Origin: an uncultured virus (IMG/VR IMGVR_UViG_3300029309_000020)
Taxonomy: Duplodnaviria; Heunggongvirae; Uroviricota; Caudoviricetes
Length of the DNA: 20,000 nt
Reading direction: 5' to 3' (one strand)
IMG/VR virus record: IMGVR_UViG_3300029309_000020
Shown one piece after another: positions 3,003 to 11,931 of the stretch (position 1 is its first letter; each line of letters opens with the position of its first letter). The translations under genes were made by a program, and so were the position numbers. The notes under the pieces were generated by a model that saw only the letters and a program-made list of their open reading frames with translations, was not told the origin of the DNA and did no database searches.

Positions 3003-3269
3003 TTATTTAGTTAATTCTTTTGCGTAATAAGTTTCATAAGGTTCAACGGATCTAAATGGCATTCTATGTTTAGATTCATCGATAAGTTTAGCCATTCTAA
3101 GCCATACGCGTAGTTCATTTACATGGTGCATGCATTGGCCTCTACCTAATTCAGGAAACGCACCGTTGTGTCGTTTTCTAAATAAGTCACGCACCATAAG
3201 CCTATGGTTTGCAATATTGCTAATAAGCTTTGATTCAATTCTTGATGTTATGTATTCTTCTTTATTCAT
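3003..3269 (-). CDS. Hypothetical protein (88 aa)
   Basis: ORF track. A-rich leader directly downstream of the tRNA-like element. Confidence 0.75.
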   Translation of the reverse strand: MNKEEYITSRIESKLISNIANHRLMVRDLFRKRHNGAFPELGRGQCMHHVNELRVWLRMAKLIDESKHRMPFRSVEPYETYYAKELTK

Positions 3270-3279
3270 AATTTTAGTT

Positions 3280-3371
3280 TAGTGGACGTGGGAGGAGTCG
3301 AACCTCCGTTTGCTGATAGTGTACTTTCGAACTTTGTCAGTAAACACTTCGTGCACTTGCCCGTCACGCCC
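3280..3371 (-). ncRNA. tmRNA-tRNA-like-domain-like small RNA (no anticodon arm, no tag ORF)
   Basis: Minus strand: GGGCGTG ACGGGCAAGTGCACGAAGT GTTTACTGACA AAGTTCGAAAGTACAC TATCAGCAAAC GGAGG TTCGACT CCTCC CACGTCC A CTA. It has a 7-bp acceptor stem with G3-U70, an A73 discriminator, a perfect T-arm, A at position 8 and a 9/11-bp internal stem. Confidence 0.7.
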
Positions 3372-3453
3372 GGTGGCCGAAGGCGCAGCTCATTACCTGT
3401 CTTTTTAACTAGTATATATTGCTCGTCAGCACTCCTTCGGAGTCGTTAATATT

Positions 3454-3645
3454 TTATTTGCGTCGCCAAGCTCTGTGAACATTTGCACTTGTAGCTTGAT
3501 CAACGATTTGTACTTCGAGTACTTGTTTGTTTGCAATGATAGGAACATAGCTATATTGCTGAGTATCAGAGCATTGCACACATTTATTGTAGCCAAGATC
3601 AATTCTTGCTTGTGGCATGCTGTTGCCGCATCTACAATATTTCAT
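3454..3645 (-). CDS. DksA/TraR-type C4 zinc-finger protein
   Basis: CRCGNSMPQARIDLGYNKCVQC matches the C..CG..IP.AR......C..C pattern. Confidence 0.65.
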   Translation of the reverse strand: MKYCRCGNSMPQARIDLGYNKCVQCSDTQQYSYVPIIANKQVLEVQIVDQATSANVHRAWRRK

Positions 3646-5380: not shown

Positions 5381-5545
5381 TTATAATTTACTAAACTTTT
5401 CTATTAAGTTTAATTCAATTTTACATTCTTCTTTATCACTTTCAGATAATTCACTTAATTTATCAACATAATACAATGTCTTTACATAATCTTTTAAATC
5501 AAAATATAATCTATCAATTTCTCTTTCAGTTAATTCTACTTTCAT
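5381..5545 (-). CDS. Hypothetical protein (start re-called)
   Basis: MKVELTEREIDRLYFDLKDY...; ATG 5545 follows the stop of the upstream gene. Confidence 0.65.
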   Translation of the reverse strand: MKVELTEREIDRLYFDLKDYVKTLYYVDKLSELSESDKEECKIELNLIEKFSKL

Positions 5546-5549
5546 ATTT

Positions 5550-5732
5550 TTATCTTCTAAATTCATTTTCATTTTTATTTGATATAATATATCTTTCAAA
5601 GATTTCATGTAATTTATAAAAATCTTCGGGAGGTAAATCTCCACTATCTAATCCAAAATCATCAACTATATCATCAAATTTAATATAATCATCTAAATCA
5701 AAGTCATCTACATTTTTAATTTTATATTCCAT
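5550..5732 (-). CDS. Asp-rich acidic hypothetical protein (60 aa)
   Basis: ORF track; DDFDLDDYIKFDDIVDDFGLDSGD. Confidence 0.7.
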   Translation of the reverse strand: MEYKIKNVDDFDLDDYIKFDDIVDDFGLDSGDLPPEDFYKLHEIFERYIISNKNENEFRR

Positions 5733-5850
5733 TTTTTATTATATTATCAATTATTTTATTTATTTCATCTTGGAGTTTATCTCCTTCATATTTATATTGT
5801 AATTCACTATATTCTTGTATTACTTCATTATATATTTCTTCTCTATCCAT
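5722..5850 (-). CDS. Small acidic hypothetical protein (42 aa)
   Basis: Manual translation MDREEIYNEVIQEYSELQYKYEGDKLQDEINKIIDNIIKNGI. Confidence 0.6.
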   Translation of the reverse strand: MDREEIYNEVIQEYSELQYKYEGDKLQDEINKIIDNIIKNGI

Positions 5851-5861
5851 TTTATAATTCT

Positions 5862-5990
5862 TTATATACTATGTTTAATTATTAATCTTTCATTTTCACT
5901 TAAGTTATAATATCTTTTTAGTTTATAACTTAATAACTCTTTATTCATATTTGTGTTTTTATAACTTTCTATTATTTTATTTAATTTCAT
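5862..5990 (-). CDS. Small hypothetical protein (42 aa)
   Basis: Manual translation MKLNKIIESYKNTNMNKELLSYKLKRYYNLSENERLIIKHSI; A-rich leader. Confidence 0.45.
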   Translation of the reverse strand: MKLNKIIESYKNTNMNKELLSYKLKRYYNLSENERLIIKHSI

Positions 5991-6017
5991 ATTTTTATAT
6001 TTTTATTTTTTTATATT

Positions 6018-6182
6018 TTATTTAAATATATTATACTTATAATCTTTATTATTTTCTAATCTTTTAAAATCTTTTATATTATTATTTTTAATATATTTTA
6101 ACATTTCTTTTTCTTCTTCTTTATAATTATTATAATCTAATTCAAAGAAATCATTATTAATTTTATAAGTTATATATTTCAT
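6018..6182 (-). CDS. Small hypothetical protein (54 aa)
   Basis: Manual translation MKYITYKINNDFFELDYNNYKEEEKEMLKYIKNNNIKDFKRLENNKDYKYNIFK; directly downstream of promoter copy 3. Confidence 0.55.
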   Translation of the reverse strand: MKYITYKINNDFFELDYNNYKEEEKEMLKYIKNNNIKDFKRLENNKDYKYNIFK

Positions 6183-6200
6183 ATTTATTTTATTTACATT

Positions 6201-6236
6201 ATTATTATCACTTTATTATATATTTTGTAACGTATT
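6201..6236 (-). promoter_or_regulatory. Repeated promoter-like motif, copy 3
   Basis: Plus strand ATTATTATCACT-N13-TGTAACGTATT; intergenic. Confidence 0.8.
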
Positions 6237-6237
6237 T

Positions 6238-6456
6238 TTATATATTATTTAAAGTATTTTTTAAATTATTTTTATTTATAAAACTTAAACCTTTATAAGT
6301 AAAATCTATAATATTTTTATTTTTTATAAATTCTTTTAAAGTAAACAAATCATTTATTTTAAAACCTATATAAGTTGTGTTTTTAATTTTTATTTTTTTA
6401 GTATAAATTAGTTTAGATTTGTAGTGATTTGTTTTTAAGTTTTTTAAATTTGACAT
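6238..6456 (-). CDS. Lys/Asn-rich hypothetical protein; first gene of the left arm
   Basis: ORF track; lies between promoter copies 3 and 4. Confidence 0.6.
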   Translation of the reverse strand: MSNLKNLKTNHYKSKLIYTKKIKIKNTTYIGFKINDLFTLKEFIKNKNIIDFTYKGLSFINKNNLKNTLNNI

Positions 6457-6480
6457 TGTATTTTATTTTTTAATTACACT

Positions 6481-6515
6481 TATATTATCACATTGGTATA
6501 AGATCTGTAACGTAT
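6481..6515 (-). promoter_or_regulatory. Repeated promoter-like motif, copy 4
   Basis: Plus strand TATATTATCACA-N13-TGTAACGTAT; upstream of the first left-arm gene. Confidence 0.8.
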
Positions 6516-6983
6516 ATTATATAAAATTAATTCAAAAGTATACTTTTTATAAAATTTATGTAATATATATTATAGATATATAAATTATTTAGTAAAGTAA
6601 TATAAACATTGTTAATATAATAATAAAATGTATTAAACTCTGTTAATATAATAATTTATAAAATACGTATATAGTCCGATTGTTATATTAGTGACAATAT
6701 ATAAAAAAGTTTGAATATATAATAATAAAACTAGATATTTACTGACAATATATTAATACAATGTACACAATACTGAGTATATAACAGTATAATGTACATG
6801 TAATTGATAATTAAGTAGTTACAAACTGCTAATAATACAGTAATGTTAACAAATGTATATAAATGATGCAATACATAGGGGCATAGGTTGCTAATATGGC
6901 TTTAAATTATAGCTTTTATTGCTAAATATGTAATGCAACACAACAATTCTATTTATCTGACAAGTAATTTAAATTAAGCTTAT
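6516..6983. other. AT-rich non-coding spacer between divergent arms (possible origin, genome end or control region)
   Basis: No ORF in the track; the coding strand switches here; contains short direct repeats. Confidence 0.55.
6610..6655. repeat. 15-bp direct repeat TGTTAATATAATAAT x2 (31-bp period)
   Basis: Copies at 6610-6624 and 6641-6655, both preceded by TAAACnn. Confidence 0.6.
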
Positions 6984-7220
6984 ATGCCTGATGCTTTTGT
7001 AAAAAACAACTTATCTGTAGTTATTTCTTTCATTGTGGCTGTGTTTACTGCAGGTGGTATATTCTCTGAGTTCACAGCTTTAAAAGATGAGATATCATTA
7101 GTGCATGAGAGACTTGATGAAAAGATAACAGTTATATTGCGTCTTGAGGAACGTATCCTTGAGATAGAAAAGCATATAGAATATGAAAAAGGATTCTTAG
7201 ATGCTAAAAATAATAAATAA
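6984..7220 (+). CDS. Membrane-anchored coiled-coil protein (holin/spanin-like)
   Basis: N-terminal transmembrane-like segment LSVVISFIVAVFTAGGIF followed by a heptad-rich helix. Confidence 0.6.
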   Translation: MPDAFVKNNLSVVISFIVAVFTAGGIFSEFTALKDEISLVHERLDEKITVILRLEERILEIEKHIEYEKGFLDAKNNK

Positions 7221-10091: not shown

Positions 10092-11687
10092 ATGGCGGTA
10101 CAGTTTGGTAGTCCAAATATTGTAAAAAATTTAAGCTTTGGCAAAGATGCTAAAGACAAACTAATTAAAGGCATAGACAAACTATCCGAGGCAGTAGCTA
10201 CAACGCTGGGTGCTTCCGGTAGAACTGTTGTGCTTGAGGATGACTTCGGTAATCCCCATGTAACTAAAGATGGGGTTACAGTTGCTAATTATATAAATCT
10301 AGATGATCCTATAGAAAATCTTGGCGTAAATATGCTAAGACAAGCATCTAGGCAAACAGCAACTAAAGCGGGTGACGGTACAACTACTTCTACTGTACTG
10401 GCCCAGAGTATTATTAAAAATTATTTCAAATTAGGAGGTGATGAGTATTCTTTCCGCGATGTAAGAAGCGGGATGAATAAACTTGTCAAACATGTCGTGA
10501 ATTTCCTAGATAAGAAAGCTTTGCCTGTAGATAATAAAAGATTGAACCAAGTGTCAACTATATCGTGTAATAATGACGAGTCACTTGGCGATTTTATTGC
10601 CCAGGCTTTTGAAGCGGCTGGCGACAACGGTGTCGTAACAATGGAATCATCTCCTACAAATGAAACGTATATTGAAACTGTAGACGGTACTCATATTAAG
10701 TCTATAAGCAAAAGTATACATTTTTATACAAACAAAGAGAAGGAAATATCTGAATTAGAAAAGCCATTAATATTTTTATGTGCTTCTGAAATTAAAAATA
10801 TCAGACGAATTCAAACGATATTAGAGTATGCGATTAAACAAAATAAATCGCTATTACTCATTGCTCCTTGCGATAACCAAATCATTTCTGCTTTAGCAAT
10901 GAATCACGTAAAGGGCAATATACGTTGCAATATTATCGATCCGCCATCTTTTGGGTTAAAGAGAAAGGATATACTTGATGATATTGCCCTTCTTACGGGT
11001 GCTACTGTATTAGATGAAAATTTAGGAGATTCACTTGACAATATCACCCCTGAAGTGTTAGGAGTAGCCAAGAAGGCTATTATAGATACTGACGGTACTA
11101 CTATAGCAATAGAAAATGTATCTGAGGAAGTTAAAGAACGAGTTAAATACTTAGAAGAGCAACTAGCGGATGAAAAGCATCATGTAATGCGCCCTCACTT
11201 AGAAAGCAGACTAGCTATACTAAATGGTGGCGTATCAATCGTTTATGTAGGTGGTGATACAGAAGTAGAAGTATCAGAAAAAAAAGATAGGGTTGACGAT
11301 GCAATCCACGCTGTAAGAGCCGCTAAAAAAGAAGGTATATTGCCAGGTGGTGGTACAGCTTTATTATTTGCAGCGGCAAGCGATTGGCAAGAAACACTAA
11401 ATCAAGGTGAATACTCTGGCCTTCAAATATTAAAAGCAGCACTTGCTTCACCTTATTTAAGAATAATACAAAATGCAGGATTAGACCCTGAAAGTATTAA
11501 AATTTCTAAATGGGGTAGAGGCGTAGATGTAACCAAAGGTGTAAATGTAGATATGATTAAAAAAGGTATTATAGATCCTTTACTTGTTACAAAATCAGCA
11601 CTTCTTAATGCTGTTTCAGTTGCTACAACTATATTATCGACCGATTGTGTAATTTCAAATGTTAGAGATTATGAAGGCGATAGGTAA
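10092..11687 (+). CDS. groEL: Chaperonin GroEL (phage-encoded)
   Basis: TKDGVTVA, AGDGTTTSTVLA, KKDRVDDAIHA, EGILPGGG and GIIDP motifs; 531 aa; no GGM tail. Confidence 0.97.
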   Translation: MAVQFGSPNIVKNLSFGKDAKDKLIKGIDKLSEAVATTLGASGRTVVLEDDFGNPHVTKDGVTVANYINLDDPIENLGVNMLRQASRQTATKAGDGTTTSTVLAQSIIKNYFKLGGDEYSFRDVRSGMNKLVKHVVNFLDKKALPVDNKRLNQVSTISCNNDESLGDFIAQAFEAAGDNGVVTMESSPTNETYIETVDGTHIKSISKSIHFYTNKEKEISELEKPLIFLCASEIKNIRRIQTILEYAIKQNKSLLLIAPCDNQIISALAMNHVKGNIRCNIIDPPSFGLKRKDILDDIALLTGATVLDENLGDSLDNITPEVLGVAKKAIIDTDGTTIAIENVSEEVKERVKYLEEQLADEKHHVMRPHLESRLAILNGGVSIVYVGGDTEVEVSEKKDRVDDAIHAVRAAKKEGILPGGGTALLFAAASDWQETLNQGEYSGLQILKAALASPYLRIIQNAGLDPESIKISKWGRGVDVTKGVNVDMIKKGIIDPLLVTKSALLNAVSVATTILSTDCVISNVRDYEGDR

Positions 11688-11931
11688 GTATATAATTATA
11701 GAAGAATTAAAAGAAGATATAAAAAAGACCGATGGCGGTCTTATGCTCGCGGAAAGTCATAGAGAAGATATACGTTACAGAAAAGGTAAAGTTATATCTA
11801 TAGGCACAAATGTAAATGGTATTGAAGAAGGCGATTGTATATGGTATGACAGGCACGCGGGTAATAACTTAGAAATAGATAATACTATTTTTAAAGTTAT
11901 AGAAGAAAGAGATGTAATTATAGTTTTATAA
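11671..11931 (+). CDS. groES: Co-chaperonin GroES
   Basis: MKAIGKYIIIEE...TDGGLML...GKVISIG...GD.I.Y...VIEERDVI; adjacent to groEL. Start re-called from 11659 to 11671. Confidence 0.92.
   Translation: MKAIGKYIIIEELKEDIKKTDGGLMLAESHREDIRYRKGKVISIGTNVNGIEEGDCIWYDRHAGNNLEIDNTIFKVIEERDVIIVL

Follow-up and report, generated by a model that had tools for sequence, protein, structure and literature searches.

The 92-nt minus-strand segment at positions 3280–3371 raises the question of whether a phage can carry a tmRNA reduced to its tRNA-like part and, if so, what such an RNA would do for the virus. The window, that is, the whole 20,000-nt stretch of DNA that was analysed, is phage DNA that encodes a ligase, GroEL/GroES and tail fibres, and the DNA runs richest in its sequence are marine metagenomes. 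Close relatives measure 54–68 kb, and one of them has direct terminal repeats; because the terminase of this relative matched 87 records, 86 of which are phages of Flavobacterium, Cellulophaga, Tenacibaculum or Maribacter, the host is probably a marine flavobacterium. The window phage itself is probably a podovirus of Flavobacteriia, and two Cellulophaga phages among the terminase matches are classed as Pachyviridae. Some related contigs (L124–L131) reside in bins labelled Ilumatobacteraceae, Aliivibrio, Rickettsiales and Bacteroidetes; these are probably mis-binned, so that the labels give no host. Elsewhere in the window, the phage-encoded GroEL and GroES (10092–11931, plus strand) have their best matches, at 41%, in Flavobacterium phages, and a very AT-rich region (5500–7000, 11%–20% GC), in which gene orientation flips, is likely a divergent promoter or origin region. 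Promoter scans found 9 candidates versus 7.6 expected.

The segment is a real TLD-only (tagless) tmRNA-like RNA gene of an uncultured marine phage, here assigned to an AG/AAC subtype after the end of its D-loop and its connector. It is intergenic, lying between a 63-aa ORF for which no family was found (3454–3645, minus strand), the conserved anchor gene upstream, and an 88-aa ORF without assigned function (3003–3269, minus strand) that starts 10 nt past the RNA. Among 4227 Rfam families, tmRNA (RF00023) is the single good match (30 bits, E 8.1e-9); the score does not reach the gathering score of 47, and the alignment consists of the two ends alone, leaving 326 model positions without a match. 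No match was reported for the mitochondrial model RF02544, same-clan overlaps being hidden. There is neither a pseudoknot ring nor a tag reading frame in the element, its 45-nt arm contains no tag-like frame, and the mRNA-like domain with resume codon and stop that belongs to a full RF00023 tmRNA, standard or permuted, is absent. A canonical or intron-containing tRNA (RF00005) was considered and rejected, there being no D-stem cloverleaf and no 7-nt anticodon loop; ARAGORN at default settings, a check that the earlier note had proposed, called 0 genes in the whole window. When relaxed to admit introns, the same program forced a tRNA-Cys onto the element and mixed anticodons onto 33 of 99 family members. 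Taken alone, the folding energy is unremarkable (z −1.5; 18 of 200 shuffles equally good). Contigs from RNA libraries cover the site and are silent on transcription, ends and strand.

The case for a functional RNA comes from its relatives. A first degenerate pattern matched at least 111 stretches in viral contigs, of which 93 were distinct; six were left out as tRNA-Ala-like (one, L042, perhaps wrongly), and in the remaining 87 the positions left free by the pattern were paired far more often than in shuffled controls, namely 0.99 versus 0.50 and 0.38 for T-stem pairs 1 and 2 and 0.80 versus 0.45 for acceptor pair 5, with 0 of 2000 shuffles as high in each case. Since this pattern imposed G3-U70, it was not used as evidence for that pair, and loci were also gathered by means of the upstream 63-aa gene alone. 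The resulting 114 syntenic loci are partly redundant, their metagenome set being the best 80 of 195. Among the 102 with enough sequence, 80 carry a non-tRNA element with acceptor and T-arm and 22 do not, although a few of these hold imperfect ones. With no RNA pattern imposed, G3-U70 and A73 are found together in 49 of 55 distinct syntenic elements, the other six comprising two false calls within genes and four elements with other acceptors. The initial reading of a mini-tmRNA of alanine identity that has neither an anticodon arm nor a tag is supported, and none of the three outcomes that the earlier note named as refuting (a canonical tRNA call, unconserved pairing in homologues and an attP copy) was observed. 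In the 44 distinct elements with a standard D-loop and AAC, the pairing of helix P2 reaches 0.845, against 0.459 for shuffled controls, not one of 2000 attaining the observed value; in 10 close relatives 100% of the cells are paired, with four compensated pairs. Homologues thus keep the acceptor, T-arm and P2 pairing as well as G3-U70, and their pairs covary; the shuffle counts are not probabilities, because the relatives share ancestry.

The subtype extends beyond the phage clade of the window. A second scan, directed at AG/AAC elements, matched at least 120 stretches (76 distinct) in DNA of 30%–66% GC; among the longer loci, a homologue of a window ORF occurs in 22 of 80 and a tRNA lies within 1.5 kb in 11 of 80, the 58 of 80 loci without such a homologue placing the subtype in many unrelated phages. 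A blastn search of 50,697 phage records returned only matches of T-arm length for the element. No TLD-only match came from the cultured relatives phi13:2, phi19:3 and elemoF or from record MW202828, and what matched in Maribacter phage Panino is an annotated permuted tmRNA. As a separate observation, Arthrobacter phage Reedo (NC_071032, about 27770–27853; L001:945–1029) contains, in the gap between gene 39 and DNA polymerase I, an unannotated tRNA-like element in which a T-arm and an acceptor-like end with a non-alanine acceptor are followed by ACTA; it recurs across 48 Arthrobacter phage records.

Read from its 5′ end on the minus strand, the RNA begins with the 5′ strand of a 7-bp acceptor stem (G1–G7, including G3 of G3-U70; 3365–3371), continues with a stemless 9-nt D-loop that holds A8 and the conserved GG and ends in AG where the host tmRNA has GA (3356–3364), and then enters helix P2 with U17–C19 (3353–3355, paired with 3311–3313). 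The 5′ strand of P2 is interrupted by a 13-nt allele-specific insertion (3340–3352), present in 5 of the 114 syntenic loci, which may include the source of the window itself. The arm loop is a conserved module, AAAGTT ... TACACTA (3317–3336), that 33 of 99 arrays carry inside the arm and none outside it, and that is also seen within a different P2 (L307). It is followed by the 3′ strand of P2 (3311–3316), with compensatory changes among relatives, an unpaired AAC connector (3308–3310; GAC in the host tmRNA) that is AAC in 49 of 55 elements, a T-arm with a 5-bp stem and a 7-nt loop, TTCGACT (3291–3307), and the 3′ strand of the acceptor with the discriminator A73 and a CUA trailer, CCA not being encoded (3280–3290). 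The acceptor with G3-U70, A73, A8, the perfect T-arm and the CTA end are all present as they were first described.

The centre of the molecule had been read as a D-loop of about 19 nt followed by an 11-nt stem, and this part of the description is out of register. The stem (9 pairs, 16-nt loop) can form in the window allele, with pair probabilities of about 0.55–0.65 in the unconstrained ensemble, which it dominates; nonetheless, it is not the fold of the family but arises from the allele-specific insertion. Typical relatives are 79 nt long, with a 9-nt D-loop, a 6-bp P2 starting at U17-A61, the 20-nt loop module and an unpaired AAC. The 13-nt insertion makes the 19-nt D-loop and the 11-nt stem possible at the expense of AAC, and the best unconstrained fold of the allele accordingly buries the connector. 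With the D-loop constrained to stay open, folding favours the register of the family (−25.2 versus −24.0 kcal/mol, a gain of 1.2 kcal/mol), and the insertion can base-pair with the arm loop on its 3′ side, yielding a longer P2 with AAC free. We take the family register as the presumptive functional fold of the window allele, in predicted competition with the alternative one. Mild support may come from L212, which has the 5′ strand of the insertion with a different partner and in which modelling favours the family register (−29.4 versus −26.7), another pairing being possible. An assembly error as the origin of the insertion is ruled out by contigs of two DNA runs, X9 (from a study that carries no flag as a possible source) and X6, which span the element with 0 differences; one further contig lacks the insertion, and a contig from a strain diverged by 5% aligns across it with no gap.

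The terminal CUA, singled out because it is not CCA, was read correctly and is ordinary for the clade and for tmRNA genes of Bacteroidota. An encoded CCA is missing from 45 of 49 alanine-type relatives, from the element of mycobacteriophage DS6A, from the tRNA-Met that neighbours the element in relatives, and from 15 of 22 Bacteroidota tmRNA genes, seven of which encode it. The simple reading is that CCA would be added by the host.

The elbow sets the RNA apart from the tmRNA of its presumed hosts. In 301 Bacteroidota genomes, the connector attached to an alanine-type end is GAC in 261 and AAC in two, both of the latter being short TLD-only elements, and in 21 of 22 Bacteroidota tmRNAs the D-loop fits a GG followed by 6 nt, the last two of which are GA. 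Two groups can be told apart among the phage RNAs: GA/GAC goes mostly with 6 nt after the GG (8 of 11), whereas AG/AAC goes with 4 nt between the GG and P2 (53 of 56), which leaves the window subtype with a D-loop whose 3′ limb is 2 nt short of that in host tmRNAs. In the 68 of 99 elements with a clear P2, which do not include the window allele, the base that ends the D-loop and the base that opens the connector change jointly (G/A in 30, A/G in 16, A/A in three, G/G in one and other combinations in 18), as if a purine pair closing P2 were selected. In line with tmRNA structure, the two covarying bases would form that closing pair. In a structural account, SmpB stacks on G19 of tmRNA, G19C abolishes binding, and the pocket of SmpB Trp122 is lined by A15, U17 and A334 (PMC8363625). 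The window subtype has A at the base equivalent to G19, which changes this contact of SmpB, and retains the equivalents of A334 and C335. The SmpB-binding architecture proposed in the earlier note therefore holds for the D-loop GG, P2 and the A334/C335 equivalents, but not for G19 or the length of the 3′ limb of the D-loop, and the tmRNA-type contact sequence at the elbow (G19-A20 with a GAC-like connector) is absent. The rebuilt elbow would probably retune SmpB binding rather than abolish it, which is the weakest step of our argument. A literature search that covered few subscription journals found nothing on a swapped tmRNA elbow or on cargo in the arm.

By its acceptor with G3-U70 and A73, T-arm, D-loop GG, P2, connector and taglessness, the element belongs to the TLD-only (CDS-less), DS6A-type class. 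Mycobacteriophage DS6A is listed as ‘TLD only’ (PMC4131195), and its element (JN698994, about 28478–28560) is likewise a tagless phage gene of about 80–90 nt that is unannotated in the record, ends in ACTA and shares G3-U70, A73, the stemless D-loop, P2, a 3-nt connector and the T-arm. It differs in having GA at the end of the D-loop and a CAC connector, whereas the window RNA has AG, AAC and a shorter D-loop; DS6A also infects another host group, and the window RNA sits in a modular array with swappable arm contents. Bacteroidota-type tmRNA (RF00023) shares the acceptor, T-arm, alanine identity, D-loop GG, P2, a connector and a mostly unencoded CCA, but possesses the pseudoknots and tag frame that the window RNA is missing, as well as GAC in place of AAC. 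Mitochondrial CDS-less tmRNAs (RF02544) and the plastid tmRNAs of about 65 bp from Mallomonadaceae (PMC11915505) also combine a TLD with the lack of a tag frame; unlike the window RNA, they are organellar, mostly permuted and served by a dedicated SmpB, whereas no smpB was found in the records of related phages. The class is therefore already known from DS6A, though barely studied, and the new points are the swapped elbow and the modular array. The curated tmRNA database lists nine ‘standard, no CDS’ sequences among 97,179 (PMC11915505) and could hold AG/AAC members; set against the at least 111 and at least 120 stretches of our two scans, this count shows that ARAGORN and the Rfam thresholds miss an abundant class of phage RNA.

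What such an RNA does is a matter of graded likelihood. The reading that we favour, while giving it slightly less than an even chance, is that the alanylated RNA acts as a decoy for SmpB and so weakens trans-translation. This is the most likely function because of the DS6A precedent, in which a DS6A-like molecule is reported to inhibit tmRNA strongly in Escherichia coli, perhaps by titrating SmpB (PMC4131195 and PMC11915505). Under this model, RNase P together with 3′ trimming would release the RNA from a polycistronic transcript, after which the RNA would gain CCA, be charged with alanine by the host AlaRS and be bound by EF-Tu; it would then compete with the host tmRNA for SmpB, or enter stalled ribosomes without a tag, and proteolytic tagging would drop during infection. 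The maturation steps are modelled on tmRNA biology (PMC3968760 and PMC3985003), the former of which gives G3-U70 and A73 as AlaRS determinants. The decoy model is favoured by the Rfam tmRNA match, the prevalent alanine identity, P2 pairing, the retention of a tmRNA-type junction (A8, the GG of the D-loop and the final two bases of the connector) and the absence of smpB from four of four related virus records. Against it stand the AG/AAC elbow, the non-alanine paralogues described below, the 22 of 102 loci without the element and the unconstrained best fold of the window allele with its buried connector. Moreover, DS6A keeps GA, so that the inhibition result may not carry over to the AG/AAC subtype; the rebuilt elbow and the swappable RNA array mean that the job of the element may differ from that of DS6A, and the altered SmpB contact together with the array leaves real room for scaffold, tRNA-decoy or tagless-rescue roles.

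The array occupies the first approximately 500 nt after the homologue of the 63-aa ORF (L175–L288) and consists of about ten recurring, nestable RNA modules; it is hypervariable and often has tRNA-Met at its end. In the window, a second conserved module with a closing stem and two small hairpins (3377–3440, minus strand) lies just upstream of the TLD RNA. This module has an invariant ACTAGTT linker, recurs in L113, L115, L118, L119, L121, L122, L131 and L138 and in 25 of 99 distinct arrays, and is upstream, downstream or absent among relatives, independently of the TLD RNA. Its covariation is weak (22–299 of 500 shuffles reach the observed values), and it has no Rfam family. A hammerhead was rejected because the GAAA core of that motif is missing. 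Even with the E cut-off relaxed to 1 or 10, Rfam offered no credible family for the modules of 24 loci, blastn of one array module against the 50,697 phage records gave no match, and copies of rRNA were discarded as a source for want of a clear excess of 9–12-mers over shuffles (one Bacteroidota 16S or 23S). Another recurring unit, TGGAAG ... AAAG ... TAAACAGA ... CATTCCAG, found in 25 of 99 arrays (e.g., L269:938–1066, L180, L188, L191, L259, L265, L279 and L115), is pseudoknot-like; its pairing is apparently compensated, insertions vary at two sites, and it looks ribozyme- or riboswitch-like. Two TLD-like elements can share one array (L130:2769–3031, L268 and L197). Anticodon-less tRNA-like paralogues with non-alanine acceptors also occur (L184, L186, L191, L204, L255 and L193; in L184 some 170 nt and in L186 some 100 nt beyond the anchor gene), including a minimal one with the D-loop alone between acceptor and T-arm.

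The RNA array around the element lends weight to the processing signal that the earlier note had listed among its options. In this alternative, the main rival of the decoy model although we regard it as rather unlikely, the TLD would be a natural tRNA scaffold. Its head would bring in RNase P, the 3′-trimming and CCA-adding activities and EF-Tu, so that a row of small RNAs is cut apart and the module plugged into its arm is stabilised, and the modules would be the active parts, for example, as protein-binding decoys. Adjacent RNAs and tRNA-Met abut the element with spacers of 0–5 nt, and arm contents are unrelated between members, whose total length is 63 nt at the least and about 190 nt at the most. 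Individual two-strand modules recur both in the arm and free-standing in the 99 arrays (8 versus 19, 3 versus 11 and 3 versus 2 cases); some of the outside counts may sit in TLDs overlooked by the pattern, which weakens this point, while free-standing copies were read directly in L187, L208, L263, L267 and L279. The acceptor identity also appears swappable: paralogues at the same site with the same layout of D-loop, arm and T-arm have a His-like G-1:C73 (L184) or U73 (L191 and L204). On the other hand, G3-U70 in 49 of 55 elements would be superfluous for a pure processing signal, some members have only a 5-bp arm without cargo (L282 and others), and the subtype is also found in the many unrelated phages noted above. 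Engineered tRNA-scaffold expression vectors reportedly use the same principle, a constant tRNA top half with variable cargo RNA in the lower arm. These vectors are man-made and keep the D-stem, and stabilisation of cargo by the phage head is putative.

A decoy for host readers of the tRNA top half, acting independently of SmpB, is a doubtful proposition; its targets might be acceptor-end toxins, elbow-binding nucleases, sensors of uncharged tRNA, or AlaRS and EF-Tu themselves. The D-loop of the subtype resembles a tRNA D-loop stripped of its stem (AATTGGTTAG-type); the His-like and U73 paralogues, as well as a patchy, fast-changing presence that fits an arms race, point the same way. Yet the 3-nt connector and P2 are tmRNA-like rather than tRNA-like, and the literature search found no such phage decoy.

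Tagless rescue, in which the nascent chain on a non-stop ribosome would pass to the alanylated RNA, aided by SmpB, so that the mRNA is freed and the protein left unmarked, seems very unlikely. The same role has been proposed for mitochondrial tmRNA, and mitochondria keep CDS-less tmRNAs with SmpB that may help with incomplete mRNAs (PMC11915505); the strongly conserved alanine identity would also fit. However, a ribosome without a stop codon needs another release step, SmpB binding of the element is in doubt, and the sole phage example tested, DS6A, reportedly inhibited tmRNA.

A relic could take the form of an attP copy of the end of a host ssrA or tRNA gene, of a tRNA or tmRNA in decay, or of one half of a permuted tmRNA. 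Such an origin might be suspected from the frequent integration of phages at ssrA (PMC11915505), the permuted full tmRNA of the cultured relative Maribacter phage Panino and the sub-threshold Rfam score, but is highly improbable and largely refuted, since both halves covary and the 3′ half matches only eight places in 185,579 genomes, each of which is a short element rather than a full tmRNA and lies on a contig that also has homologues of window ORFs. These matches, with the absence of tyrosine or serine integrases from five of five related records, rule out a copy of a host gene, so that the attP origin raised at the outset falls away, and the order of the gene, 5′ half before 3′ half with an ORF starting 10 nt on, rules out a permuted tmRNA. 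The Panino gene (PP540027, 27557–27889; L298 and L306) is itself a tag-bearing, permuted tmRNA with Bacteroidota-type ends that overlaps an annotated tRNA-Asp.

A broader conjecture, which we consider improbable on present evidence, is that the AG/AAC RNAs form a distinct, widespread phage class that has moved past SmpB, serving as tRNA scaffolds that would use host RNase P, the CCA-adding enzyme, AlaRS and EF-Tu to mature and protect interchangeable modules and, in the window clade, constituting a nested combinatorial decoy library against host RNA-binding or defence proteins. If the favoured SmpB decoy is correct, phages would routinely shut down the tagging that goes with ribosome rescue, and the exchange at the elbow would be a natural test of what SmpB requires. 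If the element is a scaffold, it would represent an unrecognised way to deploy small RNA modules. The array offers about ten conserved motifs without an Rfam family.
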